A stretch of DNA of 64,000 nt from Nanobdellati archaeon (GTDB lineage Archaea > Nanobdellota > Nanobdellia > UBA10117): contig JACOYC010000012.1 in assembly GCA_016182015.1 (NCBI GenBank), positions 29,623 through 93,622 on the forward strand, in the 5' to 3' direction. This document shows, in pieces, positions 693-64,000 of this stretch (positions within the stretch are counted from its first letter, which is position 1; every line of letters begins with the position of its first letter). Made by a program: the position numbers and the translations under genes. The notes beneath the pieces were generated by a model. That model searched no databases. It saw nothing but the letters and a program-made list of their open reading frames with translations, and had not been told where the DNA came from.

Positions 693-1872
693 CTTGTTTG
701 TAAAGAAATTCAATGTCGCCCGCAATATTATCCCAGTCATATTTTTTAGCATGGTTTTTGTTCGCTTTAGAAATTCTATTTCTCAACTTTCTGTCAGAAA
801 GCAGTTTTATAATTTTTTCTTTTAGCGCAGCAACATCACTGTAATTGACAAAAAAACCATTCTCAGGCTCCGACATAGCATACGGTACGTTGTTGACTGG
901 CGTTGCAATTACAGGACAGCCGGCCGCCATAGCCTCAAACAACGTCAGTGGCATGCCCTCGCGCTTGGAAGGCAGGACATAAATGTCCGCAGCGTTATAT
1001 GCCGCAATAACATCCTCGCGCGGAAGCCGGCCAAGAATTTTTAAGTTTGAATCGCCACCAGATAAGATCTCTAATTCTTTTTGATATCCGTCATCACCGC
1101 CCGCGAATACGAACGTAACGTCATTTCTTTCAGCAAGAATTTTCTTTGCCGCAGCCATCAAAATATCCGGCCCTTTAATTTTATTAATTCGCGCAAGAAA
1201 CAAAACCATTTTTCCGTTTATTTTGTATTTTTTCTTAAAGCCAATACTGGGCGAAGTTCGGCGCGGCGCAGCGGAGTTTATTTTACTCATATTATTTTTT
1301 CCAGTAGAATTAAAGAATTCTGCAGAAACCCCATTTGGTATAGGTATAATTTCGTTTTTTTTCTTGGATAGCTTTTTTATAAACTGTAGTTCGTATGGGC
1401 TAAGAATAATTATTTTGTTTGCCCACTTCAATGCCAGCCGGCCAAAAACGTTCTGCATCGGCCACACAAAAATATTTCCAAGAAAGTTCCTCTTGTCAGC
1501 AATCCATGGACTATGCGTGGTGTGCACGACAGGAACTTTTTTTATTCTTGCGGCCAGCCCGGCAAGGAAAGTGTGCGGCTGGTTTAGCGAGTGTGTGTGT
1601 ATTACACTGAAATCGCTGCCAAGAATTTTAAAGAAAATTTCCGGCCAGACGTAAGTCAGAGCGGTGACCCTGAACCAGTAAGGAATCCTGTGCACAAATA
1701 TCCCATCAACCAGTAAGTTTTTTTTCTTTAATCTTCGTTTTTTATCTGTATCTGCACAAAAAACGTGGACCTCATGGCCTGCCCGTACCTGTCTTTTTGC
1801 AAGCTCGTAAACGACCTGGCCAACGCCACAGATTGTAGGCTTGAAAAACGGACAGATATGCGCTATTTTCAT
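664..1872 (-). CDS. Glycosyltransferase family 4 (GT4)
   Basis: N-terminus MKIAHICPFFKPTICGVGQVVYELAKRQVRAGHEVHVF is typical GT4/GT-B; C-terminal sugar-nucleotide-binding region. Confidence 0.8.
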   Translation of the reverse strand: MKIAHICPFFKPTICGVGQVVYELAKRQVRAGHEVHVFCADTDKKRRLKKKNLLVDGIFVHRIPYWFRVTALTYVWPEIFFKILGSDFSVIHTHSLNQPHTFLAGLAARIKKVPVVHTTHSPWIADKRNFLGNIFVWPMQNVFGRLALKWANKIIILSPYELQFIKKLSKKKNEIIPIPNGVSAEFFNSTGKNNMSKINSAAPRRTSPSIGFKKKYKINGKMVLFLARINKIKGPDILMAAAKKILAERNDVTFVFAGGDDGYQKELEILSGGDSNLKILGRLPREDVIAAYNAADIYVLPSKREGMPLTLFEAMAAGCPVIATPVNNVPYAMSEPENGFFVNYSDVAALKEKIIKLLSDRKLRNRISKANKNHAKKYDWDNIAGDIEFLYKQAIANKESQK

Positions 1873-1873
1873 A

Positions 1874-2998
1874 TTAATGTGCTACTGCCATGCTGATGCC
1901 CGGCAGGCCAGCGGGATTTTTCATTTGTAAGTATGGCTTTGCCCATCTACAGCCTTCGCATAGTTTGAACATCTGTACGTTTTTGTTCAGCAAGCCGTCG
2001 CGTAGTGCTCGATAATACGCACCATTCCAGATTTCCCCCAAAGATTGCTCAGTAAGATTCATATCACCGAATTTGTGCGGTTCAAGAATTACGCAGCATG
2101 GTGTTACGCGGCCCTGCCAGTTCAGATAAATAGAACGCCAAGGCCATATACACTTTGAGTCGTGTTCGTCGTCATATGCAACAGCCACTCCAAGATTTTT
2201 TCCTTCTGCCCGCGCTTCAGAGATTAGTTTTTTTATTTGTTCTTTATATGATACGACAACTTCATCTTTTGAAAACCCGGTTTTTTCATATTTTTCTAAG
2301 TAATCATCTTTTTCCTGCAGGTCTTGGAATTCTATTTGTTCTATGCCAAGCTCGCGCGCAAATTGTACGAATTTTGGGATTTCACGCATGTTTTTTTTCA
2401 TTACAACTGCTGCGAGGGCCAGCCTGAACTTCGCACTGGTTTCTTTTCGTTTGGCGGTTAGCCGTTTTATGCCGGCCACGACGACATCAAACTTGGCAAG
2501 CTTTCTAATAGACTCATAAGTTTCCCTTTCTGTTGAGTCGACAGAGAGAATCATTTTATTTACCTGTGATTGGCAGATTTTTTCCACGATTTTTTCTGTG
2601 AAGAGCGTGGCGTTTGATGTTAAATTTACCACGATACCCTTTGAAGCTGCGTAGTTTATCATTTGAAATAAATCGCGGGCAAGGAAAGGCTCGCCTTGCC
2701 CCTGCAGATGTATTTTGACTACCGTGTCGAGTTTGTCGATTACTGTCTTGAATGTTTCAAATGACATCTCGCCCAACGGCACGCCGAGTTCAGTACGCAC
2801 GCACATTCTGCAGGCCAGATTGCACCGCAAGGTCGGCTCGATTTGCGCAGTTATTGGCTTGTGTTGAGATATATCTCCCCACGGCCTGATATGATATGCG
2901 AGCAGATTTACAGCTACTTTTGCATTTTGAGCGAGCGATCTGTTTCCTGTAAGGGCTAAGAATCTGTTGAAAAACTCCATGAAGCGATAAAATTTCAT
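1874..2998 (-). CDS. Radical SAM protein with C-terminal SPASM/twitch-like Cys cluster
   Basis: CNLACRMC matches the CxxxCxxC radical SAM motif; C-terminal CCVILEP...CEGCRWAKP cysteine cluster. Confidence 0.8.
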   Translation of the reverse strand: MKFYRFMEFFNRFLALTGNRSLAQNAKVAVNLLAYHIRPWGDISQHKPITAQIEPTLRCNLACRMCVRTELGVPLGEMSFETFKTVIDKLDTVVKIHLQGQGEPFLARDLFQMINYAASKGIVVNLTSNATLFTEKIVEKICQSQVNKMILSVDSTERETYESIRKLAKFDVVVAGIKRLTAKRKETSAKFRLALAAVVMKKNMREIPKFVQFARELGIEQIEFQDLQEKDDYLEKYEKTGFSKDEVVVSYKEQIKKLISEARAEGKNLGVAVAYDDEHDSKCIWPWRSIYLNWQGRVTPCCVILEPHKFGDMNLTEQSLGEIWNGAYYRALRDGLLNKNVQMFKLCEGCRWAKPYLQMKNPAGLPGISMAVAH

Positions 2999-14560: not shown

Positions 14561-15677
14561 ATGAAATCCATATTAGGCCAAGCCGCAGAGCTCTGCATGC
14601 CAATCAAAGAAGAACAGGCAAAAGTAGCACAAATAATAAAAGAGATTGAAAATAAAGTTAACTCCGCGCTGAAAAAATCTAAGATTACTGCAAGATGCTC
14701 GGTTGGTGGCTCTGTCGCGAAGGGGACTTGGCTGCCAGGCGTTTCAGATATTGACTTTTTTATTTTATTCGATTACGAAAAATATAAGGGCGAGCACCAG
14801 TTTTTATCTGATGTGGCGGAAAAAGTTTTGAGAAGTATTTTCAAAGGCGTGCAGCGCCTGCATGGCTCGCGCGACTATTTCAATGTAAATTACAAAAAAT
14901 ATATTTTAGAGTTTGTGCCGGTGCTGGAAATTTCTGAGCTGTCAGATGCGCTAAACCTGACGGACTACTCGCCGCTGCATGTTTACTGGGTTCGCGACAG
15001 AGTAAAAGCAAATAGGAAACTGCAATCTGAAGTGCGACTGGCAAAGCAGTTTTTCAAAGCAAACGGCGTTTACGGCGCGGAGTCATACATCTCAGGATTT
15101 TCAGGGCATGTAACTGAAATTCTGACAATTTATTACGGCGGATTTCTGCGGCTCTTAAGCAGCCGCAGCCTTGGGCGAGGAAAAATTTTATTTACTAAAA
15201 AAAGCCGCAAAGAAATTTTTAACAAATCAATCAATAGAATTTTTCAAAATAAAACAGTTTGATGTGAATTCGCTGAAACAAAAAAAAGGCCGGGCTTTGT
15301 TTGTGCTGCAGGCAAGCCGGACAAAGGGAAAAGATGATGTTGTTGGTTCGAAGTTTTTGAAGCAGTTTGAGCAGCTTAAGTCGGGCATAAGTAAATTGGA
15401 TTTTAAAATTATAAGCTCTGGCTGGCACTGGTCCTGCGAGGGAAATGCCACATTTTGGGTTTACTTGCCAGCAAAGCCGCTTTCAAGCAAAAAGATAATA
15501 GAAGGCCCGCCAATAAATATGCCCGATGTTTTCATAAAGCAGTTTAAGAAAAAGTGGAAAAAAGTTTTTATAAAAAACAAAAGATACATAGCAAAGACAA
15601 AAAGAAAAATAATTTTGCCACGAGAAGTTATCAAAATAGCGGCGTCTGCACTCAAACTAAAACTACTAACTAAATAA
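14561..15677 (+). pseudogene. cca: CCA-adding enzyme (archaeal class I tRNA nucleotidyltransferase) interrupted by frameshift near 15156-15175
   Basis: N-terminal part CSVGGSVAKGTWLPGVSDIDFFILF and FSGHVTEILTIYYGGF is class I CCA; the reading frame switches (ORFs 14561-15262 and 15171-15677 overlap); the downstream frame carries FYLLKKAAKKF, the CCA body motif. Confidence 0.7.
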
Positions 15678-16259: not shown

Positions 16260-17540
16260 TTAGATATCTGATGCAGTTAATATTTTGGTTTTTCTGCTTT
16301 TGGCCACAGAACTCGAAGCTACGATGTACTTAATATCTTTATCCTCTGCGACCTTCACAAGTCTTTGTTCTGCTGGCCCATCCATCACGACAGCGAAAAC
16401 GCCTTCAGATATGTTCTGCAGAGTGTCCTCAAGTTCTTTGACTGGCACGCGACCCATTATGTTTAAACCATTGTCAAGGACAAATGCCCCCCGAGTGCCA
16501 ACTAACTCATCAGCCATTGACTTAAGTTCAGTTAGGCTTCTGGCAGGCTGCACAGGTGCGACGCGCCTTACGACTGCTTCAGCTTCTCCGCCATTTTTTT
16601 CAGGCTCCGCGGATACAGATTTTGTAAGGTCTACAACTTTTGTTATCGGGGCTGAAAAGTTTGCTGTAGCTGATGAGCCGTTCACTTTATAATCGCTCTT
16701 GGCCTGCTCCCATGCTATTTTTGCACGCAGGGATTTGTTAATTTCCTTTAATGTCAGCTCTTCTACTTCCTTGCCGTCTGGCGCTCTCGCTACAAAGTCG
16801 AGTTCTGCGCCGTTGTCAACTAAGCCCCTTATAATCAGCTCGCCGCCACGGTCGCCGTCAACAAAAACAGTGATTGTTTTGGTTTTTGTCAGATCGACTA
16901 CTGTCTGCGATGGCTTAGTACCCTTCATTGCTACAACATTTCTGATGCCGTACCTAAGCAGGTTAACAACATCTGCGCGGCCCTCAACAAGAATAATTTC
17001 GTCTGAGTCCACAACATCCGGGCCGGCAGGCAACCTGTCAGTTCCGTATTCTGTGACTTCCATCGCCCGCACATCTTCTGTAATGGCCAGCGTAAGCGCC
17101 TGCGAGTCTGGCATCTCTGTTATCAGGGCTGCCAAAAGCTGTTTTGCCCTGTCTAATATCTGGTTGCGCTTTGATATTCGAACATCTTCGATTTTTGTGA
17201 CTTTGATTTTTGCATCACATGGGCCGACACGTTCAATTGTTTCGAGCGAGGCTGCTATGATTGCAGTTTCTGATTTGCCCATCGAGCTTGGCAGAAGAAT
17301 TTCGCCGGCGGTTTTTCCGCCCTTTGTTTCAGTTTTAACATCTATTCGCCCTATTCGGCCTGATTTTTGCAGCTCACGCAGTTCAAGGTCTGAACCGAGC
17401 AGGCCTTCTGTCTGGCCAAAAACTGCACCGATTATGTCGGGCCTGTCAGCCACGCCTGTAAGATCAAGGCTTGCACGTATTATATATTTTATTGATACCG
17501 GACTTATTTTTCCCATTTTAGTTCTCCGAGGAAAACGCAA
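16260..17540 (-). CDS. dnaG: Archaeal DnaG primase-like protein (Toprim; exosome-associated)
   Basis: 426 aa; Toprim region ILVEGRADVVNLLRYGIRNVVAMKGT, FVDGDRGGELI. Confidence 0.85.
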   Translation of the reverse strand: MRFPRRTKMGKISPVSIKYIIRASLDLTGVADRPDIIGAVFGQTEGLLGSDLELRELQKSGRIGRIDVKTETKGGKTAGEILLPSSMGKSETAIIAASLETIERVGPCDAKIKVTKIEDVRISKRNQILDRAKQLLAALITEMPDSQALTLAITEDVRAMEVTEYGTDRLPAGPDVVDSDEIILVEGRADVVNLLRYGIRNVVAMKGTKPSQTVVDLTKTKTITVFVDGDRGGELIIRGLVDNGAELDFVARAPDGKEVEELTLKEINKSLRAKIAWEQAKSDYKVNGSSATANFSAPITKVVDLTKSVSAEPEKNGGEAEAVVRRVAPVQPARSLTELKSMADELVGTRGAFVLDNGLNIMGRVPVKELEDTLQNISEGVFAVVMDGPAEQRLVKVAEDKDIKYIVASSSVAKSRKTKILTASDI

Positions 17541-17712
17541 GCCAAACTGCAGTCTGGCTGCGCACAGAAAAATCCTTCTGGATTTTTCTTGTGATTATCT
17601 GACCGCAGTCAGATTTACGCAAAAAAATGTTTTGACATTTTTCTGCGCCCAGCTGAATTTCATTCAACTCGGGTTTTTCCCATTTTATATCACCTTTAAT
17701 TTTTGGAGAAAT

Positions 17713-20730: not shown

Positions 20731-22359
20731 ATGACAAACCAGAATGTACAGCCGATATTTATCCTGCCGGAAGGCACACTGAGAAGCCAGGGAAGAAACG
20801 CACAGAAAGCTAACATAAGCGCAGCTAAAGCGGTGGCCGATACAGTCCGGACTACGCTCGGGCCGAAGGGCATGGACAAGATGCTCGTGGATTCCATTGG
20901 CGATGTTGTAATCACAAACGACGGCGTCACGATTCTTAATGAGATGGAGATTGAGCACCCTGCCGCAAAGATGATGGTCGAAATCGCGAAGGTTCAGGAG
21001 GATGAGGTTGGCGATGGGACAACGACCGCGGTAGTGCTGGGCGGCGAGTTGCTGAAAAATGCGGAATCGCTTTTGGAAAAAAATATACACCCGACTGTTA
21101 TCGCGAACGGCTACAAGCAGGCCTCTGAAAAGGCACAGGCCATCCTTAACGAACTGTCAAAGCCAGTCTCCATAAAAGACACTGATGTTTTGAAAAAAAT
21201 CGCGATGACAGCGATGACAGGCAAAAATGTAGAGATTGCACGCGAAAAGCTGGCGCAGATCGCATTAGATGCAGTCCTGAAAGTCGCAGAAAACTCAGAT
21301 ATAGACCGAGACGATGTAAAACTTGAGAAAAAAGAGGGCGGCGGGATTGATGACTCGCAGCTGATCGACGGCGTTGTTATTGACAAAGAAAAAGTTCATG
21401 CAGACATGCCAAAGTCCGTGAAAAACGCGACGATTGCGCTGCTGGACTGCGCCCTCGAAATAAAAGAGACAGAGACGGAGGCAAAAATTCAGGTGGCTGA
21501 CCCCAAGCAACTTCAGGCGTTCCTTGACCAGGAGGAAAAAATGCTGAAGAACATGGTTGAAACGATTGTAAAATCCGGCGCAACTGTTGTTTTCTGCCAG
21601 AAGGGCATTGACGATATTGTACAGCACTACCTTGCGAAGAAAGAAATTTATGCCGCACGCCGAGTGAAAGAGTCAGACATGAAAGCGCTGGCAAAGGCGA
21701 CTGGCGCAAGAATAATTGCAAGCCTTAATGATTTGAAGGCAGGGGATTTGGGCAAGGCCGGCCTTGTTGAAGAGAGAAAATTACACAAAGAGTCAATGAC
21801 TTTTGTTGAGCGGTGCAAGAATCCTAAGTCGGTTACTATTTTGCTGCGCGGCGGCACAGAACATGTTGTTGCAGAAGTTGAGCGCGCGATGACAGATGCG
21901 ATTGGCGACTTGATTGCTGCAATTATTGTTGGAAAATTTGTTGTTGGCGGCGGCGCTGTTGAAATTGAGCTGGCAAAACGGATGCGAAGCTTTGCTGAAA
22001 CACTGTCGGGAAGGGAGCAGCTTGCGGTGCAGGCGTTTGCGGATTCTCTCGAAGTAATACCAAGAACGTTAGCAGAGAATGCGGGCCTTGACCCGATTGA
22101 TTCCTTAACCGAACTGAAAGCAAAGCACGATAAGGGCGAGGCAACAGCCGGTCTGAATGTTACGACGGGCAGGGCGGAAGACATGTTGGCGAAGGGCGTG
22201 ATTGAGCCGCTAAAAATAAAAACGCAGGCAATTCAGTCGGCATCAGAAGCTGCGATAATGCTGCTGAGAATTGACGATGTAATATCGGCAAGCAAATTGA
22301 GCCGGGGCGGGCCGCCCGGAATGCACGAACCTGGACAGATGGGCGGGGAAGATTTTTAG
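20731..22359 (+). CDS. ths: Thermosome subunit (group II chaperonin)
   Basis: [28 protein letters not shown] motifs; 542 aa; C-terminal GGM-like tail. Confidence 0.95.
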
Positions 22360-22428
22360 ATTTTTTTGATTACAATTGTTGCATTGGCAAAGCCAATGCG
22401 ACTCGGGGATTGGAAGTGACTAAGAACG

Positions 22429-22445
22429 AAGGGGCAGAGCCCCTT
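22429..22445. terminator. Stem-loop AAGGGGC-AGA-GCCCCTT between convergent thermosome and ATPase genes
   Basis: Perfect 7-bp inverted repeat with 3-nt loop in the convergent intergenic region. Confidence 0.4.
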
Positions 22446-22492
22446 GGGTCTTAGGGACAGATGGGCGGGGAAGATTACTAAAAATCTGCTAA

Positions 22493-24247
22493 TTATGCCA
22501 TTAGATTTGCCAGCTTTGCAGGATTGACTGCATAGAGATTCAGAAACTGCGTGACTTCCTTGAAACCCTTTATTCCTTTTTTCTGCATGCGCGCAAGCAG
22601 GCTTGCTCTCCTCTTGAGCTCCTGCTGAATATCGTTTTCTGTCCATCCGTGCCTCGAGGCTATTCTTTGCATCAAATGAGAATCAGATGTTGTAAAAACG
22701 TCCTGGCTTGGAATCCAGTGGGCAACCTCATTTGTCTTTAGCTGATTCCTCTCGCGGTCAAAGCCCTCGACCTCAACAATCTGGCTGACCTTTCTCACCA
22801 AACGCCCTTCAATTTTTGTCTTCTGCAAAAATACGATTACGTCAAGGTTTTCAAGCAGCGACATCGGCAGGCTTATCGGCCTCGTGGTAAATCTGTCTAT
22901 CACGCTGTTAATGTCATCTGCGTGCAAGGTTGACAGCGATGCGTGGCCCGTGGCCATCGCCTGAAACATTACAAATGCTTCTGCACCACGAACTTCGCCG
23001 ACGATAATATAATCCGGCCTCTGCCTAAGCGCGGCTTTCAGCAGGTCGAACATTGTTACCTCGCCGTATTTCTTCGGGCCGAAGCCGGTGCGCGCAACCT
23101 GCGGCATCCAGTTTGTGTGCATCAGTGTAAGCTCGGCGGTATCTTCTATCGAAACAACCTTTGCGGACGGGTTGATAAATTCCGCGATTGCATTCAAAAA
23201 AGTTGTTTTTCCGACGGCGGTCGTGCCTGCCACAAGAACAGATTCTCCTTCTTCGATGGCCAGCCACAGATAAGCGAGAATCATTGGATCAGCGGTTTGA
23301 AAATCCATTAAATCTATTACTGTCAGCGGTGTTTTGAAGAATTTTCGGATGCTGAAGTTAGAGCCTTTTCGCGCAATATCAGTGCCGTAAGTAATCTGCA
23401 GTCGCGAGCCGTCCGGCAGCGCAGCATCAAGCAGCGGCGCGGCTACAGAAACAGTCCTGCCGGATTTCTGGGCCAGCTTCATGGCAAATGCGTCCAGTTC
23501 ATCCTTTGATTCAAACCAGACGTTTGTCGGCATCTGCCCGTAAATCGGATTTCTGTGGAAAATAAAAATCGGCACGCCAGTCCCATCACAGGAGATATCT
23601 TCTATTTTCTGGTCGCGCATTATCGGCTCTATCCTGCCAAGGCCGATTGTATCGCGGTAAATGTAATATTTAACATTCAGTGCATCGTCGTCTTTTGGTT
23701 TTGCGCTGAGAAATTCCCATGCCTCGTTTATTTTTTCGTCAATGTAGCCGTAAATTTCCTCTTTCTCATGCAGCCTGCCGAAGTCAACTTCCAGCCTGTC
23801 GTGCAGTATTTCTATAGTTTTAGCAACCAAATCCTTGAGGTCCGGCGTAAGCTCCGGCTCGACAATGTGATAGATAAGCTGGTTGGCAATTTGGTTAAAA
23901 TGAATATCTGCATGAGCCAGCACGCGTTCCTTGCCGTGCCATTTTGTCTTGATTAGCGGATATGTTTCGTGAACTGTTTTGATTTTCCCGAGAAAGTCCT
24001 GTTTTTTTCCAAGCACTTCGTCAAATGTTTTTGGCAGCACAACTCGTTTGCCGCCGCCTTCAAGTTCCAGATGCGCCTCAGCTAATGTTTGTTTTGGCCT
24101 GCTATCTTCCGCAATCGGCATAGCAACTTCCTGCGCAGGAATTTCTGTAATAGATTGAGCTGGCTCTGTTGCCCGGCTTGCTGTTTCTGCCTGCTGCCGC
24201 TTGCTTCGCAGGCCTGCAAGCAATCCAAATAAAGCAAGGGTGGCCAT
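22493..24247 (-). CDS. Type IV pilus/archaellum-type secretion ATPase (FlaI/PilB/VirB11 family)
   Basis: Walker A AGTTAVGKTTFLNAIA, Asp box, His box; 584 aa. Confidence 0.85.
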   Translation of the reverse strand: MATLALFGLLAGLRSKRQQAETASRATEPAQSITEIPAQEVAMPIAEDSRPKQTLAEAHLELEGGGKRVVLPKTFDEVLGKKQDFLGKIKTVHETYPLIKTKWHGKERVLAHADIHFNQIANQLIYHIVEPELTPDLKDLVAKTIEILHDRLEVDFGRLHEKEEIYGYIDEKINEAWEFLSAKPKDDDALNVKYYIYRDTIGLGRIEPIMRDQKIEDISCDGTGVPIFIFHRNPIYGQMPTNVWFESKDELDAFAMKLAQKSGRTVSVAAPLLDAALPDGSRLQITYGTDIARKGSNFSIRKFFKTPLTVIDLMDFQTADPMILAYLWLAIEEGESVLVAGTTAVGKTTFLNAIAEFINPSAKVVSIEDTAELTLMHTNWMPQVARTGFGPKKYGEVTMFDLLKAALRQRPDYIIVGEVRGAEAFVMFQAMATGHASLSTLHADDINSVIDRFTTRPISLPMSLLENLDVIVFLQKTKIEGRLVRKVSQIVEVEGFDRERNQLKTNEVAHWIPSQDVFTTSDSHLMQRIASRHGWTENDIQQELKRRASLLARMQKKGIKGFKEVTQFLNLYAVNPAKLANLMA

Positions 24248-35999: not shown

Positions 36000-36812
36000 C
36001 TAACATTTTCTAATAACCACTAAAAAAGCAGTATGCCCGAGCATCTGATGCTCTGGCCTTGCCAGCTGTCTCTCACCTTGCTTTTCTATCTTCCACTCCC
36101 TCTGGATTGTTTCCACAACCTTTTCTAATTGCCAGCCTGCCCCGAGTTTTCCAACTAGCTCAATTGCCTGTGTTACCTGCGGGCAGTATGCAACAAAGTA
36201 TCCGCCCGCCCGTAAAGCCTTACCTGCAGAAGGCAGGGCAAGCCACGGCTCAGAGAAATCAGCAACAACTAAATTCACATCTTTTTCATCAATCTTATCA
36301 ACTGCATTTTTATTTTTCAAAGCAACATTCTTCAAGCCAAGAAACTTAAAATTTTTCTCTGACATCTGGTAAAAATCCTTCCTAATCTCATACGTTACAA
36401 CTCTCTTGCAAACATTTGCAAGCTGTGCGGCAAGCCAGCCGCTCCCCGCGCCAATCTCAACGCAGACCGAGTCCTTTCCAACGCCAGTCAGAGAAATAAT
36501 TGTCGCGAAGTCTTTTGGCAGAATCACGGCAGGCCCGCGCCTGCAATTCGCGAGTAGGTCATAGAACTGCGGCTTCGCCAGCAAAACTTTTCGGCCAGCA
36601 GATGTTTCGATAACAAAATTGTAACTTTTCCCAACAAGCTTTTTCAAATCTAATATGCCTAAGTCACTTTGGTGTTTTTTGTTTTCTGCGCGCACCAATA
36701 TTTTTCTGCCAGCATGCAATAACAAAACCAAATCATTGTTTTTGATTTTCATTTGTGAGCCCGCGAACAAATGATTAGCGAACACCTGGTTCGCTTTATC
36801 ACATAAAAACAA
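36000..36812 (-). CDS. trmI: tRNA (adenine57/58-N1)-methyltransferase TrmI (Gcd14 family)
   Basis: SAM-binding VEIGAGSGWLAAQLA; N-terminal beta-barrel; 270 aa. Confidence 0.8.
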   Translation of the reverse strand: MFLCDKANQVFANHLFAGSQMKIKNNDLVLLLHAGRKILVRAENKKHQSDLGILDLKKLVGKSYNFVIETSAGRKVLLAKPQFYDLLANCRRGPAVILPKDFATIISLTGVGKDSVCVEIGAGSGWLAAQLANVCKRVVTYEIRKDFYQMSEKNFKFLGLKNVALKNKNAVDKIDEKDVNLVVADFSEPWLALPSAGKALRAGGYFVAYCPQVTQAIELVGKLGAGWQLEKVVETIQREWKIEKQGERQLARPEHQMLGHTAFLVVIRKC

Positions 36813-49110: not shown

Positions 49111-50439
49111 CTAAATTAAACCGAGTTGTTTAAGTTCTCCGCGGATTGCCGTAGGATCTTCCCCGCCATGCCAGCTGTACTTTGGCCTGACTTGCATCGG
49201 GTAGATTTTTTCCAGCTTGTCGTCTATCAGGACTGCTGAGCCTTTGTCTGCAGGCAAGTCGTCTATGTAGCGCTGGATGTCAAAAGTAAGATAGGTGGCT
49301 GCAATTTCGTTTAACGCTGATAAGTCTATTTTTGAAGTGACTTTATGTGAGAGCACGATGTCGGCCTGCGTCATCACGTCAGTGTGAATTTTGCCAGGCT
49401 GCTGAGTTGCAAGCACGAGTGAGATTCCGGGTTGCCTGCCTTCGCGCAAAATCTGAATCAGCGCGTTAGACGCCAGGGTTTTTCCGGTTCGCGGTAGGAA
49501 TTCATGCGCTTCATCAATCATCATCCATACAAGCGGCGCTTCCTTTTCAGCGATTACAGATTTTTCTCCAAACAAAAAACCACCCTCGGAAATCAGTTTT
49601 ACTTCCTCTGCCTTTCGTGCGGCCATGCGCTGCGCGAGGATTTTCTTGCTGACTAAACCAATTACAAGCGCCTTCAGCCGCTCGCCATTTTCAACCTGCG
49701 CGTATGCCGAAAGGTCGAGAATTGTTGTTGTGCCGCTTTTTAACAAATCTAAAATTTCTGTGCCAGCCGCTTTGAATATACCCCAGCCGTCTGCGGCTAA
49801 AAACTTGTTTTTTAGAATCTGCTTCTCTTTTTTTTCTGCATCTTTGTCTGTTTCTAAAACGTTAATTAGTTCGCCAATTTCGAAAGTTCCCAGGTTTTCT
49901 TTAGCCTTTGTTACCGTGCGTTCAAGTAATACGCCAGCATCAGATAATAAATCAATTCCAAAAATTTCCGCCCAGTCGTCAGCAGATATTTCTGATGGCC
50001 TGATGGCAAAAGGCAGGTCGCACGGCACGCCTTTTTCTTGGTAAGAATCGAACAGGCCAAACGGAACAAAAATCACTGGGCTCAGGCCTTTGGGAGTCAA
50101 GCCCCATTCTTTTAGGATTTTGTCGTCTTTGTAATTTGGGTATTTCATCGTCCAGAAAATCCCCATCGTGTCAAAAATCAGGAATGATAAATTATTTTTT
50201 ATTTCGTCCGGCAAATCTGCAAGGCCTTCAGCAATTACGGAAATTGTGTAGCTTTTTCCTGTCCCGCGCTTGCCGCTTACTAATATAATATGCGGGCCAG
50301 CCACATCAAGATAAACGGGATTTGACAGCGCCTGAATCCGCTCCATCTGCACATAGTGCTTGCCAAGGAAGATTGTTCCTGCTAAACCTAAACGTTCTTT
50401 CTCCTTCGGGGACCTGCCCGCGATTATTTCGTATGCCAT
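49111..50439 (-). CDS. HerA/FtsK-like P-loop ATPase (DUF87/COG0433)
   Basis: Walker A GKRGTGKSYT, Walker B MMIDEAHEF; 442 aa. Confidence 0.7.
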   Translation of the reverse strand: MAYEIIAGRSPKEKERLGLAGTIFLGKHYVQMERIQALSNPVYLDVAGPHIILVSGKRGTGKSYTISVIAEGLADLPDEIKNNLSFLIFDTMGIFWTMKYPNYKDDKILKEWGLTPKGLSPVIFVPFGLFDSYQEKGVPCDLPFAIRPSEISADDWAEIFGIDLLSDAGVLLERTVTKAKENLGTFEIGELINVLETDKDAEKKEKQILKNKFLAADGWGIFKAAGTEILDLLKSGTTTILDLSAYAQVENGERLKALVIGLVSKKILAQRMAARKAEEVKLISEGGFLFGEKSVIAEKEAPLVWMMIDEAHEFLPRTGKTLASNALIQILREGRQPGISLVLATQQPGKIHTDVMTQADIVLSHKVTSKIDLSALNEIAATYLTFDIQRYIDDLPADKGSAVLIDDKLEKIYPMQVRPKYSWHGGEDPTAIRGELKQLGLI

Positions 50440-50535
50440 CGGTGACCGTGATTAGATTTAAAAGCTGAGAATAAAAGCTTTGTCTGTGCCGATAGCCCAA
50501 AAGCTGCGCTTTTGTGGAATCGTCACGCTCCGCGT

Positions 50536-50719
50536 GCCGACGTCGCTTAACCCGGTATAGCGCTGGTCTCGAAAACCAGTCCCGCAAGGGATTGCAGGTT
50601 CAAATCTAAGATCCAAGGGGGCGCTGCCCCCTTAGTTCTTAGTCACTTCTGATCCCCCGGTCGCATCGCTACGCGATGCAACTAAGGATTAGCAGTGAAG
50701 GAAAATCCTGCCGTCGGCG
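50536..50719 (+). tRNA. tRNA-Ser (anticodon CGA) with about 101-nt intron at non-canonical T-loop position 60/61
   Basis: Acceptor GCCGACG/CGTCGGC, discriminator G, D-arm GCT-TAACCCGGTAT-AGC, anticodon stem CTGGT/ACCAG with loop CTCGAAA, long variable arm TCCCGCAAGGGA, T-stem GCAGG and T-loop TTCAAAT, then an insert before CCTGC. Confidence 0.75.
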
Positions 50720-50814
50720 CTCAATTTTTTCATAATATAGAAATAAGGATTTTTTGATTTCAACCACAAACTATTTAAATGCCCGCAAGTATGTTTAACT
50801 TGAGGTAAATTAAA

Positions 50815-51285
50815 ATGGCCGCATGGTTAAGTGAAAAATCAGTAACAGTGTTAGCTGTATTAGTCGCCCTGGTAGCTGTAGGAGCACCTTTGCTTACAGG
50901 GAATACGGGAAGGTTGGCAATAGCTACGGGTACCAGTTCTCTGCCATTTGACTTTTCTGTAACAAATGTAAATGTGCCTGAGCCACAGTACTCGTATTAC
51001 CCTGTCAGGGGCATTACTGCTACTTTCAGGAATACCGGGCCAATAAGCTTTGGCTTTGTAAATTACAAGATGGAAATATCCAGTTCCAAGGGCCATTATT
51101 ACAGAGACGGTGTTGGAACTGTCACGCTGCCTGCCCGCGGTTCGGCGTCAGCAGAGATGCCAGCGGTGCATGACTTGCCAGCCGGCGAGTATAATGTCAA
51201 GGTCACAATAGATTACCTTGGCGAGCACAGCGAGACAGATGAATCAAATAACGCGTTCACAACAAAGCTCGTGATAAAAGGCTGA
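50815..51285 (+). CDS. Secreted single-domain CARDB-like beta-sandwich protein (paralog family)
   Basis: Signal peptide; C-terminal motif EHSETDESNNAF shared across the family. Confidence 0.6.
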   Translation: MAAWLSEKSVTVLAVLVALVAVGAPLLTGNTGRLAIATGTSSLPFDFSVTNVNVPEPQYSYYPVRGITATFRNTGPISFGFVNYKMEISSSKGHYYRDGVGTVTLPARGSASAEMPAVHDLPAGEYNVKVTIDYLGEHSETDESNNAFTTKLVIKG

Positions 51286-51354: not shown

Positions 51355-51828
51355 GTGCTGAATGTAATGGCCACATACGAGAAATATATTGCAGCCTTAG
51401 CGGCAGTATTTTTGCTGGCCAACATCAGCCATAATTTTTTGGCCGCAGGCAGCGCAACAGTAAAAACGCCGGTTGATTTTTCTATTCAGGCGTTGTATTA
51501 CCCGAAAATAATGCTGCCGAACACGCATATCACTACGAGGGCAATTTTATCTAACAAGGGCACGCAGTCCGCTTCTTTTGTAACGTATGATTACCGTATT
51601 TTTGACGAGCGCGGCGCGGAAGTATACAGGAGTTCCGATGGGTCATACATACAGGTTTTGCCGGCGAGCACGGAGGTTTCAAGATATCTGAGCACGGTGA
51701 TGTTTCAGAAGGCTGGCAAGTACAGAGTTCGCGTGACTATTGATTCTGAAAAGCGGTTTGATGAGACAGATGAGACTAATAATATATATGAAACAACAAT
51801 AACAGTTACAGATTCTTTGCCGAAGTGA
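51355..51828 (+). CDS. Secreted CARDB-like protein (paralog)
   Basis: MATYEKYIAALAAVFLL...; FDETDETNNIYETTITV. Confidence 0.6.
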   Translation: MLNVMATYEKYIAALAAVFLLANISHNFLAAGSATVKTPVDFSIQALYYPKIMLPNTHITTRAILSNKGTQSASFVTYDYRIFDERGAEVYRSSDGSYIQVLPASTEVSRYLSTVMFQKAGKYRVRVTIDSEKRFDETDETNNIYETTITVTDSLPK

Positions 51829-54800
51829 TAGAAATGGAAAAACATAAAAAAACCAAAATAGCCGCTTTGTTTCTGATAGTTCCGATAATTTTCCTCTGGC
51901 CGCTGTCCATTGCAACGTTACAAGAGTCAGATCTATCTTTTTTTGCGAAGGGCAAGGATGATTCTGGTGTAGGTTCATCCTCGTCCGGGTCCTCTGGACC
52001 GTCAGCACCATCTTCCCCAGCCATAGCTTCTGAGCCATCAGCACCGGCCTCGCCGTTAGAATCAGCATCTTCTGATACCAGTGAGGCAGAAAGCAGTTCC
52101 GCATCCTCGGGGCAGGCAGAATCTTCAGGCGGGAAGGCAGGCAAGGAAAAATCAGAATCTGGCGGTGAAGCGCAGTTAACACCTTCCGAGGAAAAAACAG
52201 AAGCCAAGGAAGAAAAAGTTAAAGAGGAAAAAGTAAAAGAGACCAAGGAAGAATCAGCAGAAGCAAAGGAGGAGAAAAAATCCGAAGCGCGCGAGAGCGC
52301 AGTCATGGGGCCGGCCGCAAATGAAATTGCAACTGTCAACGAAGTTGCTGCCGAAGTTGTGGCGACAGACCCCGGTGTTACACCTGACTCTCCAGTTTAC
52401 AAATTAGAAATAGCTGCAGAACAGATACAGGACTCTGCAGTGAATAATCCTGAAAAGAAGGCGGAAGTAGCCGCCGAACGCGCAGAGGAGCGGCTGGCCG
52501 AAGCAAAAGCAGTTGAGGAAAAAGGAGACTACAAATCAACAGGGGTTGCGCTGGAAAAAGCGCAGGAGAGCGTAGAGGCAATCTCGCGGGCCGTGGATGC
52601 AGTTCCAAAGAGCGAGGAAAAAATTGAGGCTGCAAATAAAATAGAAAAACACGCGCTTCAGCTCGAGGACTATGCTGAGAGCGTAAAAGATAAGCTAGAG
52701 GAAAAAGTAAAATCCGGCGATGCGCCGCCCGAAGCGGTTGATGCTTTGGACAGTGTAAAAGAGCTTGAGGCCGCAGCAGTCGAGGCGCAATACAGAGCCG
52801 AAAAAACAAAAGATAAAATTGCAGACAAAATAAGGGAAGAGCAGGGCGTTACAAAACAGGAGGCAGAGCTGATCGTCGAGCAGAAATCCGATGAGTCCGG
52901 GCTTACAGAACTGCAAAAGGAAAAAGTTGCGGATGATTTTGAAAAAATCCGCGAGAAAATAGAAAAACTTGACGAGCGCGCGGGCGCAGTTGAGGAAGCC
53001 AAAAATGAGAAGCCTGCCGAAAAAACAAAGGAAGCGATTTCTGATAATTTTGATGATTTGAAAACTGTGCTGAAGGATACAAAAGACTCGCTGAAGGATG
53101 TTGCTGAGGAGCGCATCCCTGAAATCGAGCAGCAGTTTGCGGAAATAGATTCGAAAGTAAAGAGTGCTGAGGAAAAGAGCAGCAAGGATGCTGGCGAGAA
53201 GCCTGCTGAAGAGGTTAGCGCTCAGCTGGCCAGCGATTTCTCCGAGATGAAAAATAAAGTTGGCATAGCAGAGGAAGAAATAACAAAAGCTGCAGATGCA
53301 GAAATTTCAGTGCAGTTTGGCGAAGTTAACGATAAAATAGAAAAAGCAGAAAAGAAGGCGAAAGAGACTGCAGAGGAAGATGAGAAGGCGCAGATAGAGC
53401 AACAGTTTTCAAAATTAAAAGACGAAGTCGATAAAGCCGAGAAAAAAATCAAAGGTAAAGAAACGGCCCTGCAGGAAGAAGCAGCGATAGCTGTTGAAAC
53501 AAATTTTAATGAGATTAACAATAAAATTGAGACTGTAGAGGCCAACGTTGAAGAAATAAAATCTGCAGACGCTGAGGTTGCATCTGAATTTGCAGGCCTT
53601 AAAGACGCGGTTGAGCAGGCCGAAGGTGCAGTTGCTGAAGCGGCCAAGCCGGAAGACAGGGGCAAGGTTGCATCTGAATTTGAAAAAATAAAAAAAGAAG
53701 TTGAAGATGCCGAGAAAAAAACTGGCGAGGCAGCCGGAGAAAAAACATCTGAGGAAATAAAATCTGAAATCGCAAAAGAGTTCGATGATGTAAGCAAAAA
53801 GATAGATGAAGCAGAGCACAGCATAAAAGCGGCCAAGTCGGCATAAAAGCGGCCAAGCCGGCAACGGCTGAAATTGCAAAGGAATTTGACGAGCTGAAAG
53901 GCAAGGCTGATAAGGCTGAGGAAAAAGTAAAAACCGAGAAAGCGGCAGACGTAGAGCTTAAAAAAGAATTCGAAGAGCTGGTGATAAAGTCATCAGAAGC
54001 TGAAGAAAAAATAAATGAAAAAAAATTAGAAAAGGCGGAAATTAAAAATAATTTTGATAAAGCTAAGGATGAAATAATTAATATTGAACGCAGTGTCCAG
54101 GCTGAACTTGTACCGGAAACTGTGGCTGTGCCGGAGGTTCCGGATGTTGTTGCTGACCTAATCGAGGAAGCAAAAACGCAGCTGCAGGTATCAGAAAGTG
54201 CTTTTGAAACCAAGCAGGCAGGCAAGGCCTACAAAGAGCTCAAGGGCGCAGAATTTATGGCAAACAGCGCAGAAAAAGTTTTGGATTCGTTGTCCGGTGA
54301 TTTTGAAATAAAGGAAAAAGCAGAGAAGATAGAAAAGTCCGCGGAGAAAGCCGACAGGGATGCGGAAAAAGAGGTGAAGGAGCGCGTTGATGATATAAAA
54401 GAGAAACTTAGCAAGGCCGAGGAAAAGGCGGTAGAAGTGGCAGAGCCGAAAGACAAGGCAGACCTAGCCAAGGAATTTAAAGAAACAAGGGACAGGCTTG
54501 ACGGAGCCGAGAAAAAAATCAAAGATGATGTCCGCAACAAGCCGGCCGAAGAGGCTGGCCCAGAAGTCGCGGCCGAGCTTGCAGATGTAAAAGATAAAAT
54601 TGACAAAGTGGAAGAAAAAGCCAGAGAAAAAATCAAAGGCAAGGAAATTGATGACGTAGTGCAGGAGCTGGCCAGCGCAAAAGACAAGGCAGACAAGGCG
54701 GAAGACAAGATAATAGAAAAGGCGGCCAGAGCTGAAGAAAATAAGGACAAGGTTGACAAGGCGTTTAAAGAAATTGAGACGCCGCTGTCTGTGACTGACG

Positions 54801-56476
54801 TTTTGAACGAGCTTAGCAAGGTAAAAAGAGACGCTGACGAAGACAAGGCCAAGAGAATAAAAGACGCAGAGGATTTTTCAGTTGATTATGAAGCTGCAAA
54901 GGAAAAGCTGGACAAAGAACATCCGGGCAAAAAAGATGCCTTTGAGAAAGAGTACGCGCAGTCCAAGAAAGTCCTTGAGATAAATGAGAAGCTTGATGCG
55001 GATAATGCAAAAGAACTGAAGGAGCTGCGGGAAGACCTGAAGGCAGAGACAAAGGACGAAGCAAAAGCAGAGAAAGAGGCAGAAAAGCTGCTTAAGAAAA
55101 GCGCTGCAGATGAGTTCCGCAAGGCATACGGCGAAGAGTTTTTGCCGCCAGGCATCAGCCTGAAACACGAGGGCGACAAGGAAAATGGCAAGCTGGATGA
55201 AAAGTTCGAAGCAAAAGAGGCAGGCCATGTTAAAGGGTACAAATACAAGGATGATGCTGCTACCGGCTATGAATATGAGTTTACTTCTGACGGATATAAA
55301 TTCAAGACGCCGCGCGGCAATGAATATGAAGTGAAGTACGACTCGGATTTTGTGCCGCCAGATGGATATGAAACCGGAAATGAAATGCATAAGTTCAAAG
55401 CCAAAACCCTGAAGGGCAAGGCAGAATATATATTTGTGCCGACTGGATACAAGGTAAAAACAAAAAGCAAGGAAAAGGCAGGCGCCTACGATGTTGGTGA
55501 ATATGAAGTGAACGGCGGCGGCAAGATAAAAATAAGGCCGACTGGTTACTCACTTGAGAAAGACGGAAAAGTGAAAGCAGAAAAAGAGAAGGCAGTAAAG
55601 GAAAAGAAGGAGAAAGTAAAGAGCGAGAAGAAAGAGAAAGATGAGAAAGCGAAGGAGGAGCGCGTAGCAAAGGAGAAGAAAATTAAACTAGAGAAGGAAG
55701 CCAAAATTAAGGCGGTAAAAGAAAAATCAGAAACTGCAAAAGAAAAGAAAGAGCGCGAAGTGAAGGAGAAAAAAGTAAAAGGAGAAAATGAAAAGAGGGA
55801 TAAGAAGCTAAAAGAGGAAAAAATAAAGAAAGAGAAGGAAGATAAAGACAAGAAAGAAAAAGAAGTGAAAGAAAAGAAGGCCAAGAAAGAAAAAGAAGAA
55901 AAAAAGGTGAAGGAAGAAAAGATAGTCAAGTACAAATATAATCCAAAATCAAAGAAATATGTTTCGGCAGGCGGGCGCGTGTTTGTGCCGCCGCAGGGGG
56001 CAAGCCTGCATGAGCAAGCCAAGTACCTGCCAGATAAAAACGTATATGAACTTAAGGTAAACGGCGATGTTTGGACTTACGATCCTGTTACAGATGCATG
56101 GACATCGAAAAGCGGCGAGGCTGATCAGGACGTTACGCCGGCGATTTTAGTTGATTTCGGAGTTGACGATGTTAGCAGGCCGGGCGTGACTTCGCCGCAG
56201 GCCGCGACAGCTTCTGTTAAGAACATTGGCACTGCCACAGCTACAGCAGTACATTACAAGTACGAAATAGTCGCAGCTAACGGCGCAGTAAAGTATTCAA
56301 CAACCGGCGATATAACTGCGGTGCCATCTGACAGCTCAGTGCTTGTAAGGACTGCAACAGATTCTGGACTAAGCCCCGGGGCATACAAGCTTAAGTTCAC
56401 AGTGGACTCTGACGGCAAGTTTGACGAAGGCGACGAAAACGATAACGTCTTTGAGAAGGAGCTGATTGTGGCCTAA
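51825..56476 (+). pseudogene. Giant E/K-rich coiled-coil surface protein (about 1540 aa if repaired) with C-terminal CARDB-like domain; interrupted by 20-bp tandem duplication at 53822-53861
   Basis: ORFs 51825-53846 and 53981-56476 are in different frames. Removing one 20-nt repeat copy restores a continuous frame with matching repeat style (EIAKEFDELKGKADKAEEKV). N-terminal TM, S/P/A-rich linker, then EK repeats, and the tail ends FDEGDENDNVFEKELIVA. Confidence 0.7.
53822..53861. repeat. 20-bp tandem direct duplication cataaaagcggccaag(t/c)cgg x2
   Basis: Two adjacent copies with one mismatch; 20 nt is not a multiple of 3, so the duplication shifts the frame. Confidence 0.85.
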
Positions 56477-62695: not shown

Positions 62696-64000
62696 ATGGT
62701 TGATAAGCCAATCGTAAATAATAACAACGACCTTAGATCGATCTCTCCAGCCGAGTTTTTCGAGAAAAACCGCCATTTGTTAGGTTTCGATAATCCAATC
62801 AAGGCCCTTTTAACAAGCGTAAAAGAGGCAGTAGATAATTCTCTAGACGCCTGCGAAGGCCACAAGATACTGCCAGAGATTTTTATCCAAATCCAGAAGC
62901 TCGGTGAAACAAGATTCAAGATGATTGTGGAGGACAACGGCCCAGGCATTTTAAAAGAACACGTGGCTAAGGCGTTTGGAAAACTCTTGTACGGCTCAAA
63001 GTTCCAGACTTTCGGCGGCAAGCAAGGCCGCGGCCAGCAGGGCATCGGCATCTCGGCCTCTGTGATGTATGGCCAGCTCACGACCGGCAAGCCTGCAAGA
63101 ATAATAACAAGAACCAAGGGTCAGAAAAACGCATTAGTTCAAGAGCTGAAAATAGACATCAAGACAAACGAGCCACAAATCATAACAGAGGCATCAATTG
63201 AGTGGAAGCACGAACACGGAACTCGCGTGGAAATTGAACTAGAAGCAAAATACATGGAGAAGAAAGCCTCAGTTGTAGAATATGTCCGCCAGACCGCGGT
63301 CGTGAACCCGCACGCAAAAATCACATACATCGATCCGGAAGGCCAGAAAACTGTTTTCGACCGTGTGGTTGAAAAGCTGCCAAAAGAAGCTGAGTTCATC
63401 AAGCCGCACCCATACGGCGTTGAGCTCGGCGTTTTGCTAAGGATGCTAAAAGAAACTTCAACAAGGGCGCTAAATTCATTCCTGACAACGGAGTTTGACA
63501 AGGTCGGCTCGACAACAGCGGAGGAGATTCTAAAAACATCCGGCCTTGACCCGAAGATAATGCCCAAACTCTTGTCAGTCGAGCAAGCGGATAAATTAAT
63601 CAAGGCGATGCACGGGTGCAAAATAATGTCTCCGACTACGACGTGCTTATCGCCAATCGGCGACGAGAATTTGAAAAAGGCGTTGGAAGCAGAGTATGAC
63701 TTGGAATTTGCTTTTGCAGTTACAAGACCGCCATCGGTTTACCGCGGAAATCCATTTTTAATAGAAGTTGCAATCGGCTACGGCGGCGAACTGCCGGCAG
63801 ACCAGCCAGTAAAATTAATCCGATTTGCAAACCGCGTCCCACTTTTATACCAGCAGGGCGCGTGCGCGCTGACGAAGTCAATTACAAGCGTTGATTGGAA
63901 GAACTATGGTCTGCAGCAGAGCGGCCAGAACGTGCCGAACGGGCCGGCCATCATTCTCGTGCACATGGCGTCGGTCTGGGCGCCGTTCACTTCAGAATCA
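62696..64000 (+). CDS. top6B: DNA topoisomerase VI subunit B (3' truncated at window edge)
   Basis: GHKL ATPase motifs EAVDNSLDA, VEDNGPGI, GQQGIGISA; transducer domain follows. Confidence 0.9.
   Translation, partial: MVDKPIVNNNNDLRSISPAEFFEKNRHLLGFDNPIKALLTSVKEAVDNSLDACEGHKILPEIFIQIQKLGETRFKMIVEDNGPGILKEHVAKAFGKLLYGSKFQTFGGKQGRGQQGIGISASVMYGQLTTGKPARIITRTKGQKNALVQELKIDIKTNEPQIITEASIEWKHEHGTRVEIELEAKYMEKKASVVEYVRQTAVVNPHAKITYIDPEGQKTVFDRVVEKLPKEAEFIKPHPYGVELGVLLRMLKETSTRALNSFLTTEFDKVGSTTAEEILKTSGLDPKIMPKLLSVEQADKLIKAMHGCKIMSPTTTCLSPIGDENLKKALEAEYDLEFAFAVTRPPSVYRGNPFLIEVAIGYGGELPADQPVKLIRFANRVPLLYQQGACALTKSITSVDWKNYGLQQSGQNVPNGPAIILVHMASVWAPFTSES

Follow-up and report, generated by a model that had tools for sequence, protein, structure and literature searches.

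A tRNA-Ser(CGA) gene of a Nanobdellati archaeon with a T-loop insert built on a dispersed two-hairpin element

A contig stretch of 64,000 nucleotides (nt) from a Nanobdellati archaeon (JACOYC010000012.1; hereafter the window) carries at 50536-50719, on the forward strand, a colinear tRNA-Ser(CGA) gene whose T-loop is broken by an insert of 101 nt. We hold it likely that this is a live gene with an intron between tRNA positions 59 and 60, which would be removed by the endonuclease of the host, and that the core of this intron is a dispersed, probably mobile element. An earlier reading of the sequence alone (the sequence-only reading) had proposed a non-canonical intron of the endonuclease type, and the support that this proposal has now gained comes mostly from T-loop introns in three relatives and from the covariation of the spliced tRNAs. 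What that reading missed is the position 59/60, the 83-nt length of the spliced product and the nature of the insert, which copies an element dispersed beyond tRNA genes.

The interrupted gene and its junctions

The 5' exon (50536-50604, tRNA positions 1-59) reads from the acceptor 5' strand GCCGACG through the D-arm, the anticodon arm CTGGT-CTCGAAA-ACCAG with anticodon CGA, the long variable arm CCC-GCAA-GGG and the T-stem 5' strand GCAGG to the T-loop residues U54-A59. The 3' exon (50706-50719) supplies U60, the T-stem 3' strand CCUGC, the acceptor 3' strand CGUCGGC and the discriminator G73, the CCA end not being encoded, and the T-loop of the spliced sequence reads TTCAAAT. The exons joined give a tRNA of 83 nt (86 nt with CCA), a perfect tRNA of class II, with its long variable arm and with G73, called tRNA-Ser(cga) by ARAGORN with every stem paired. 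The sequence-only reading had described this gene with its 101-nt T-loop insert, its parts intact and colinear and the 3' strands CCTGC and CGTCGGC-G about 101 nt downstream, all of which is confirmed by the sequence and by the perfect cloverleaf obtained when the insert is removed; its mature tRNA of 85 nt was two nucleotides too long.

The unspliced gene escapes the usual searches. ARAGORN reports zero tRNAs on the raw window, and the precursor is still undetected when introns in the anticodon loop are allowed, as expected, T-loop introns being outside its model. Rfam gives no match on the unspliced gene at the gathering score and, in E-value mode, only a partial match of the tRNA model over the D and anticodon arms (18.9 bits). 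However, the precursor folds far more strongly than shuffled sequence (z = -7.15). Neither ARAGORN nor Rfam finds any other tRNA gene in the 64 kb, where further disrupted ones could be hidden.

Other kinds of interruption were considered for this locus. A split or permuted tRNA gene is excluded, the exons being colinear, 101 nt apart and on one strand. A group I or group II self-splicing intron was rejected, with no Rfam match even at E ≤ 10 (50400-50850) and an insert of just 101 nt. Over the same interval, in E-value mode, there is no noteworthy Rfam match to a small nucleolar RNA, and in both gathering and E-value mode Rfam has no family for the insert, the Plastid-psbJ-4 matches merely reflecting a hairpin. 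A guide RNA of the C/D box type, such as the one in the Haloferax tRNA-Trp intron, was also set aside: the insert has no C box (RUGAUGA), and its sole CUGA (CACTTCTGATCC) is lost in the other copies of the element described below (copies B-D), which read CCAA.

The sequence AAATC stands at both junctions, and six junction pairs, from 56/57 to 61/62, yield the identical product (one of them, 50601/50703, by inspection). The sole register that fits a geometry of the bulge-helix-bulge (BHB) type is 59/60, with the 5' exon ending at 50604, the 3' exon starting at 50706 and the intron at 50605-50705, as given by the junction analysis and by a fold with the cloverleaf enforced. The predicted spliced junction would then read ...GGUUCAAA|UCCUGCC.... 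The location in the T-loop given by the sequence-only reading stands, but not its position of about 60/61.

In this register, helix h is the T-stem (5 bp), the central helix H has three of four pairs (UUC:GAA, then an A.G mismatch) and helix h' has none. The 5' strand of H, U54 U55 C56 (50599-50601), pairs with GAA (50701-50703), which is followed by the 3-nt bulge A A | U60 (together 50701-50706). The predicted 3' splice site thus lies in a proper bulge of 3 nt, with the T-stem on one side and a 3-bp helix on the other, whereas the predicted 5' site (A59|U) falls in a 4-nt single strand of the multiloop. The BHB test that the sequence-only reading had suggested therefore has a divided outcome, with one proper site and no strict BHB. 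Under a relaxed definition (hBH, HBh' or BHL, with at least one proper bulge-helix half) the window junction does qualify, and it would be best described as a relaxed hBH/BHL motif and not a strict BHB, a feature that is weak taken alone. Once the cloverleaf is imposed, helix H needs no forcing, and the splicing-competent fold is just 1.5 kcal/mol less stable than the unconstrained minimum. Moreover, the T-arm plus intron adopts this fold without any constraint, both for the window and for one orthologue (L020, see below).

Two further observations concern genes of the window that act on tRNA. A CCA-adding enzyme (14561-15677) is encoded as two overlapping open reading frames (ORFs) in different frames, the nucleotidyltransferase domains at 14561-15262 and the C-terminal domain at 15171-15677; this may reflect a frameshift, an error of sequencing or a truly split gene, and it is relevant here because the tRNA gene lacks an encoded CCA. 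Also, a GCD14/TrmI-like methyltransferase, of the family that makes 1-methyladenosine 58 in tRNA, is encoded at 36000-36812 on the minus strand. Its target base and the predicted splice site are one position apart, and it could therefore matter whether modification or splicing comes first.

Introns in the T-loop of orthologous genes

The tRNA gene has a HerA-like ATPase gene about 100 nt away. Orthologues were located through homologues of this ATPase, the loci of the close ones being fetched, and an orthologous tRNA-Ser(CGA) gene is present in four related DPANN genomes (L019, L020, L021 and L023). L019 (HerA identity 89%; tRNA gene at 2337-2466, minus strand) has a T-loop intron of 36 nt at 54/55, in a strict 3-4-3 BHB with H GCAG:CUGU (4/4) and h' of 8 bp, together with an 11-nt canonical intron. 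L021 (HerA identity 81%; 872-987, minus strand) has a T-loop intron of 33 nt at 58/59, again in a strict 3-4-3 BHB, with H GUUC:GAAC (4/4) and h' of 11 bp, and no other intron. Both short introns are textbook cases. The gene of L020 (HerA identity 88%; GCA_023245115.1, 1288-1615, minus strand) takes 328 nt for an 83-nt tRNA and has three introns, being of 44 nt in the D-loop, 104 nt in the anticodon loop and 97 nt in the T-loop. This last one lies at 59/60 and its junction shows the same relaxed geometry as that of the window (H 3/4, h = 5). Finally, the most distant relative, L023 (HerA identity 76%), has an intact T-arm without T-loop intron and a 12-nt canonical intron. Its gene is the only one that ARAGORN detects, every T-loop-interrupted orthologue being missed.

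Counting the window and the four relatives, there is no T-loop intron in one genome and one in each of the others, at three distinct positions and with up to three introns per gene, and the position varies among genomes whose neighbouring ATPases are 81-89% identical. The five spliced tRNAs, with a mean identity of 90%, hold standard pairs in all 115 cells of the 23 stem pairs, seven of these pairs showing a compensatory change. In the control for this covariation none of 500 shuffles reaches the observed value, and pairing drops to 25-47% when the partners are slid by 1-3 columns. The window contributes an anticodon stem with its own compensated sequence (CUGGU:ACCAG).

The T-arm exons are identical in four genomes. 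Between the window and L020, by contrast, the interiors of the introns show no alignable similarity (z = 0.1), so a homology of these interiors was not adopted; the covariance model of the element described below (R1) has no match in L020 either. Near-identical exons around unalignable interiors indicate selection on the exons only. Judging from the shared position and junction geometry in L020, the interruption has probably lasted through a speciation without change in the exons.

The signals around the gene are also in place. A TATA-like box, TTTAAAAG (50457-50464), likely the tRNA promoter, precedes the first GCCGA (50488) by 31 nt, the identical spacing to +1 being seen in the L019 and L021 orthologues, and a T6 run at 50725-50730 is a likely archaeal transcription terminator. 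Taken together, the intact and covarying exons, the unalignable interiors and the promoter at its kept spacing point to a functional gene whose insert must go.

The two-hairpin element outside tRNA genes

The core of the intron, 77 of its 101 bases (50606-50682), is a copy of a repeated element with two hairpins. Besides this copy A (plus strand), a BLAST search of the region against the window found copy B at 22378-22454 on the minus strand. Copy C was found with a 21-base core pattern in a set of species-representative genomes, at the 3' end of an ATPase gene in a Nanobdellati metagenome-assembled genome (MAG) from groundwater (L001), and copy D with a 19-base pattern at the end of a Hainich groundwater contig (L017). 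The four copies have a mean column identity of 88% over 77 nt and retain both hairpins. The covariance model R1, built from them, scores 88-103 bits on all four (copy A, 102.9 bits, E = 7e-27; copy B, 88.2 bits). Hairpin 1, CUAAGAUCCAAGGGGGC-GCU-GCCCCCUUAGUUCUUAG, occupies 50606-50642 and hairpin 2, GCAUCGC-UAC-GCGAUGC, 50663-50679; the stem of the latter varies in sequence and length among the copies and always pairs, that is, it covaries. The sequence-only reading had listed two perfect hairpins in the insert. Both exist and are longer than it stated, but the first is an imperfect hairpin of 37 nt.

R1 finds no further copy in about 110 kb (the window plus the fetched loci), and the pattern scans of genomes and of metagenomes gave one true match each, the family being rare there or too diverged for exact patterns. 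No Rfam family resembles the element. Three scans of IMG/VR returned no true match, only chance matches in an unrelated phage gene or nothing, and a viral origin was accordingly not retained.

The element begins with CTAAGAYCC and ends in unrelated A/T-rich tails of 11-23 nt. It has no terminal inverted repeats, its inverted repeat being the internal hairpin 1. Duplications flank it, of 5 nt in the window intron (AAATC), 22 nt at copy B and 26 nt at copy C, so that two of the three copies outside the tRNA gene lie between target duplications, copy D being cut by the contig end. A longer duplication at the tRNA gene, in which the tail of the intron (50683-50707) would derive by decay from a repeat of the 21-27 nt to the left of the insert, was not adopted (p about 0.05-0.06 against shuffles). 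The borders of copies B and C show no BHB when scanned in the orientation of the element, which indicates that they are no introns. A gene for an integrase, a transposase, a reverse transcriptase or Cas1 was not found in the 64-kb window.

Copy B lies between the convergent genes of a thermosome subunit (20731-22359, plus strand) and a PilB/T2SSE-like ATPase (22493-24247, minus strand). Its 22-nt direct repeat (repeat family D10, 100% identity, spacing 122) consists of the last thermosome codons (GGACAGATGGGCGGGGAAGATT) at 22333-22354 and of a distal copy at 22455-22476; the gene copy reads GQMGGEDF*, and the distal one would read GQMGGEDY*.

For copy C, the 26-nt repeat (2 mismatches) duplicates the end of a 797-residue ATPase gene of the type II secretion system (T2SS) or type IV pilus type. 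This ATPase now ends in ...KQEVKRHF*, whereas the reading from the distal repeat goes on as ...KMEVKRHANQNL*, in agreement with the closest homologue (94% identity), whose C-terminus is ...KMEVKRHQNI. Also, a homologue of 88% identity has its next gene beginning 2 nt behind the stop, too close for the element to fit, as read from the gene table and not from the DNA. From these comparisons, copy C behaves as an insertion that interrupts a reading frame whose ancestral end survives downstream.

The arrangement at the thermosome gene (end of the coding sequence, hairpin spacer, copy of the end) recurs in all four genomes examined, the window, L024, L025 and L026. In L024 (1870-2114; thermosome 93% identical) the element is present with a nested insertion in the loop of hairpin 1 (about 1950-2054, some 105-108 nt), which is bordered by the 6-nt repeat TCTGCC, carries its own hairpins and is without paralogue among the fetched loci. 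In L025 (4112-4238) the spacer is of 73 nt and homologous to the element in its second half (z = 5.3, 1 of 3000 shuffles), and in L026 (4106-4226) it is a two-hairpin stretch of 61 nt without detectable similarity to the element. The repeats are of 22-30 nt and the spacers of 60-200 nt, and the repeats are identical or nearly so within a genome, differ between genomes and track their own gene. For example, the single G/A difference between the window and L024 sits in both repeat copies of each genome. Identity within genomes together with difference between them makes a single ancient insertion followed by neutral drift inadequate, and suggests either repeated re-insertion or a homogenisation of the two repeats by gene conversion. 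All four genomes being occupied, no empty site was found for the thermosome insertion.

A separate repeat of the window lies at the other end of a gene. The start of a Toprim/primase-like gene (..CTAAAATGGGAAAAA) is duplicated 167 nt upstream with 86% identity over 21 nt (17507-17694, minus strand), and the roughly 150 nt between the repeats are hairpin-rich, a possible short insertion with a long target duplication at a gene 5' end.

Alternative explanations, proposed pathway and known systems

The alternative that survives best, although unlikely, is a dead tRNA gene, in which the element landed in the T-loop and was never removed, UCG being read by another tRNA-Ser. A tRNA-Ser(UGA) could read UCG by wobble, so that the tRNA-Ser(CGA) gene need not be essential. 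Elsewhere the element acts as a plain DNA insertion with borders lacking any BHB, the AAATC at both junctions resembles a 5-bp target duplication, and the motif in the window is merely relaxed. A dead gene would also accommodate a second insertion-like stretch at the 5' end of the tRNA, where 48 extra nucleotides (50488-50535) separate the promoter-proximal GCCGA from the real 5' end. This stretch is bounded by a duplicated GTGCCGA (50486-50492 and 50534-50540), holds the hairpin CAAAAGC-UGC-GCUUUUG, and is lacking in the orthologues, which read TTTGT|GCCGACG directly. It has no paralogue in the window and the fetched loci. A scan of its eight possible registers found no convincing BHB; the idea of a further intron was dropped, and the stretch is treated as a 5' leader, probably made by a second small insertion in the tRNA gene.

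What a dead gene does not explain is the state of the exons. All stems are intact, and the anticodon stem has accumulated compensated changes specific to its lineage. Copy A is the most diverged of the four copies of the element, yet no decay accompanies it in the exons, and the promoter and terminator are retained. Also, with an intron at the same position and of the same junction geometry beside identical exons in L020, the interruption probably outlived a speciation, and the strict BHB introns in the same loop of the relatives show that this lineage splices T-loop introns.

A second alternative, which we consider improbable, keeps the splicing and gives up the mobility: an ordinary, vertically inherited BHB intron that resembles sequences elsewhere through a shared functional RNA module, such as a protein-binding or terminator pair of hairpins. 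The structure of the two hairpins is conserved, and the thermosome-end layout, found in four genomes with a homologous half in L025 and a two-hairpin spacer in L026, looks old and maintained. In the antisense reading, moreover, the A/T-rich tail provides a stop codon and a T-run to the thermosome and ATPase frames, just past them. However, a shared module would hardly give copies 88-94% identical at non-homologous sites of different genomes, each with its own duplicated flank, nor break a reading frame as copy C does while the ancestral end survives downstream. The tRNA-Ser intron of the genome that carries copy C lacks this module, and the element resembles no Rfam family. Finally, a chimeric join in assembly or binning is hardly credible despite the MAG-like source of the window (its proteins match 'DPANN group archaeon'), because exact colinearity and a clean register bring back the tRNA when the exons are joined, T-loop introns occur in the same gene in independent assemblies of other samples, and the element recurs in three further independent assemblies.

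A live gene with a spliced intron therefore remains the preferred reading, and several points weigh against it. The junction lacks the two 3-nt bulges separated by a 4-bp helix of the strict hBHBh' motif: H has three of four pairs, no h' helix stands beside the 5' site, and this site lies outside any 3-nt bulge. With the T-stem fixing the register, at least three of four pairs in H would arise by chance in about 15% of cases by our own estimate, and taken by itself the motif therefore proves little. The ORFs of the window that were scanned yielded no EndA domain. The dispensability allowed by wobble reading counts on the same side. Also, the 59/60 intron may or may not be older than the element, since the introns of the window and L020 agree in position and junction motif and not in their interiors.

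From the fold and the comparisons we infer the following pathway, in which splicing and the exact cut sites are predictions. The transcript would carry the 101-nt intron between T-loop positions 59 and 60, and as the tRNA body folds, U54-U55-C56 would pair with the GAA near the 3' end of the intron. This would place the 3' cut (AA|U60) in the 3-nt bulge between helix H and the T-stem, and the 5' cut (A59|U) in the 4-nt single strand across helix H, thereby presenting a relaxed hBH/BHL substrate. The intron would most likely be excised by the archaeal tRNA splicing endonuclease (EndA), and an RNA ligase would join the exons.

As for the origin of the intron, an insertion of the element at the DNA level may have created or enlarged it, or the dispersed copies may stem from the intron itself. 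The element may have invaded an older 59/60 intron that is shared with L020; or the insertion may have created the intron, and AAATC at both junctions would fit a 5-bp duplication. Tentatively, and with slightly more doubt than belief, we picture the 77-nt module as a mobile, non-autonomous DPANN element whose DNA-level insertions fall near the 3' ends of transcription units and duplicate up to about 26 nt of target, and which, when it lands in a tRNA gene, is removed by a permissive endonuclease and becomes a new non-canonical intron. The direction of movement could equally be the reverse, with the excised intron copied into other sites.

The window encodes a thermosome subunit, a Hel308-type helicase, AglB/STT3, SMC with ScpA and ScpB, an archaeal-type pilin/flagellin, T2SS-like proteins, the CCA-adding enzyme and many CARDB proteins, at a G+C content of about 45%, and its closest relatives are groundwater organisms named Nanobdellati, Nanoarchaeia or Woesearchaeota. 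Downstream of the tRNA gene, at 51825-56476, two long ORFs (673 and 831 residues) show an extreme purine skew and degenerate repeats rich in Lys and Glu, the second ending in a CARDB domain, with small CARDB proteins nearby. A match to the family CRISPR-DR33 at 63643-63679 (minus strand; 25 bits, E = 0.46) has no repeat array around it and is most likely due to chance, no CRISPR array being found in the window.

The intron as such is of a known type. Introns in the T-loop and at other non-canonical positions, tRNA genes with several introns and relaxed motifs are described in Thermoproteales, Korarchaeum, Nanoarchaeum and ARMAN (PMC6379350, PMC4033280), and the relaxed hBH, HBh' and BHL motifs are cut by endonucleases of broad specificity (PMC6379350). 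The present case resembles these introns, including those of ARMAN-1 and ARMAN-2, in its position outside 37/38 and in the T-loop, in its relaxed hBH/BHL junction and, through L020, in having up to three introns per gene. It is also like them in the quick turnover of positions among close relatives and in being missed by standard tRNA finders (PMC6379350, PMC4033280, PMC5829648). However, the host here is a mesophilic-looking groundwater DPANN archaeon, and the intron is long, with a core that also occurs outside tRNA genes. It is this link between an intron sequence and insertion-marked copies outside tRNA genes that goes beyond this known type.

Reviews hold the mechanism of tRNA intron transposition to be unknown, presume a DNA-level process and ask that insertion events be caught as snapshots (PMC4090602, PMC4033280). 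The likeness to the present case is in related intron sequences at different sites, implying a spread at the DNA level. In their summary of Fujishima et al. 2010 the related copies lie in other tRNA genes, whereas here they lie at the 3' ends of protein genes, with duplications of 22-26 nt and no BHB. The disruption model for Caldiarchaeum (Sugahara et al. 2012, PMC3293823) shares with the present case the direct repeats of the target end flanking the insert, and an intron gain tied to a mobile element. In that model, however, the insert is of 1.8 kb, encodes a recombinase and enters by attachment-site (att) type recombination at the tRNA, in contrast with the non-coding inserts of about 100 nt at unrelated targets found here.

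Among short repeats, miniature transposable elements with inverted repeats (MITEs) and elements like the repetitive extragenic palindromic (REP) and palindrome-associated transposable element (PATE) types are comparable in being short, non-coding, rich in hairpins, multi-copy and placed between genes or at gene ends; the L024 copy, moreover, hosts a nested insertion. An identification as a MITE was rejected: terminal inverted repeats are lacking, the duplications are long and variable (5, 22 and 26 nt) in place of a fixed short target duplication, and the right end is a variable A/T-rich tail. With the att-bordered elements of the SSV and pNOB8 type, the element has in common the direct repeats of a target 3' end (22-30 nt at the thermosome of the window, L024, L025 and L026, and 26 nt at the ATPase of L001). 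The inserts here, however, are non-coding stretches of 60-100 nt, different targets have repeats of unrelated sequence, and the window lacks an integrase.

For DPANN, Kaneta et al. (PMC5829648) reported that EndA enzymes with an L3 loop (alpha4) go with more disruption of tRNA genes, and that incomplete tRNA sets point to disrupted genes not yet identified. The locus described here is a concrete case of such hidden disrupted tRNA genes, and it bears on the annotation of tRNAs and on estimates of MAG completeness. Moreover, the relaxed 101-nt intron and the strict ones of 33 and 36 nt, in the same loop of the same tRNA, offer testable substrates for the unusual endonucleases of DPANN. Finally, if the mobile-element reading is true, the window would be a snapshot, at the level of sequence, of the gain or enlargement of an archaeal tRNA intron.

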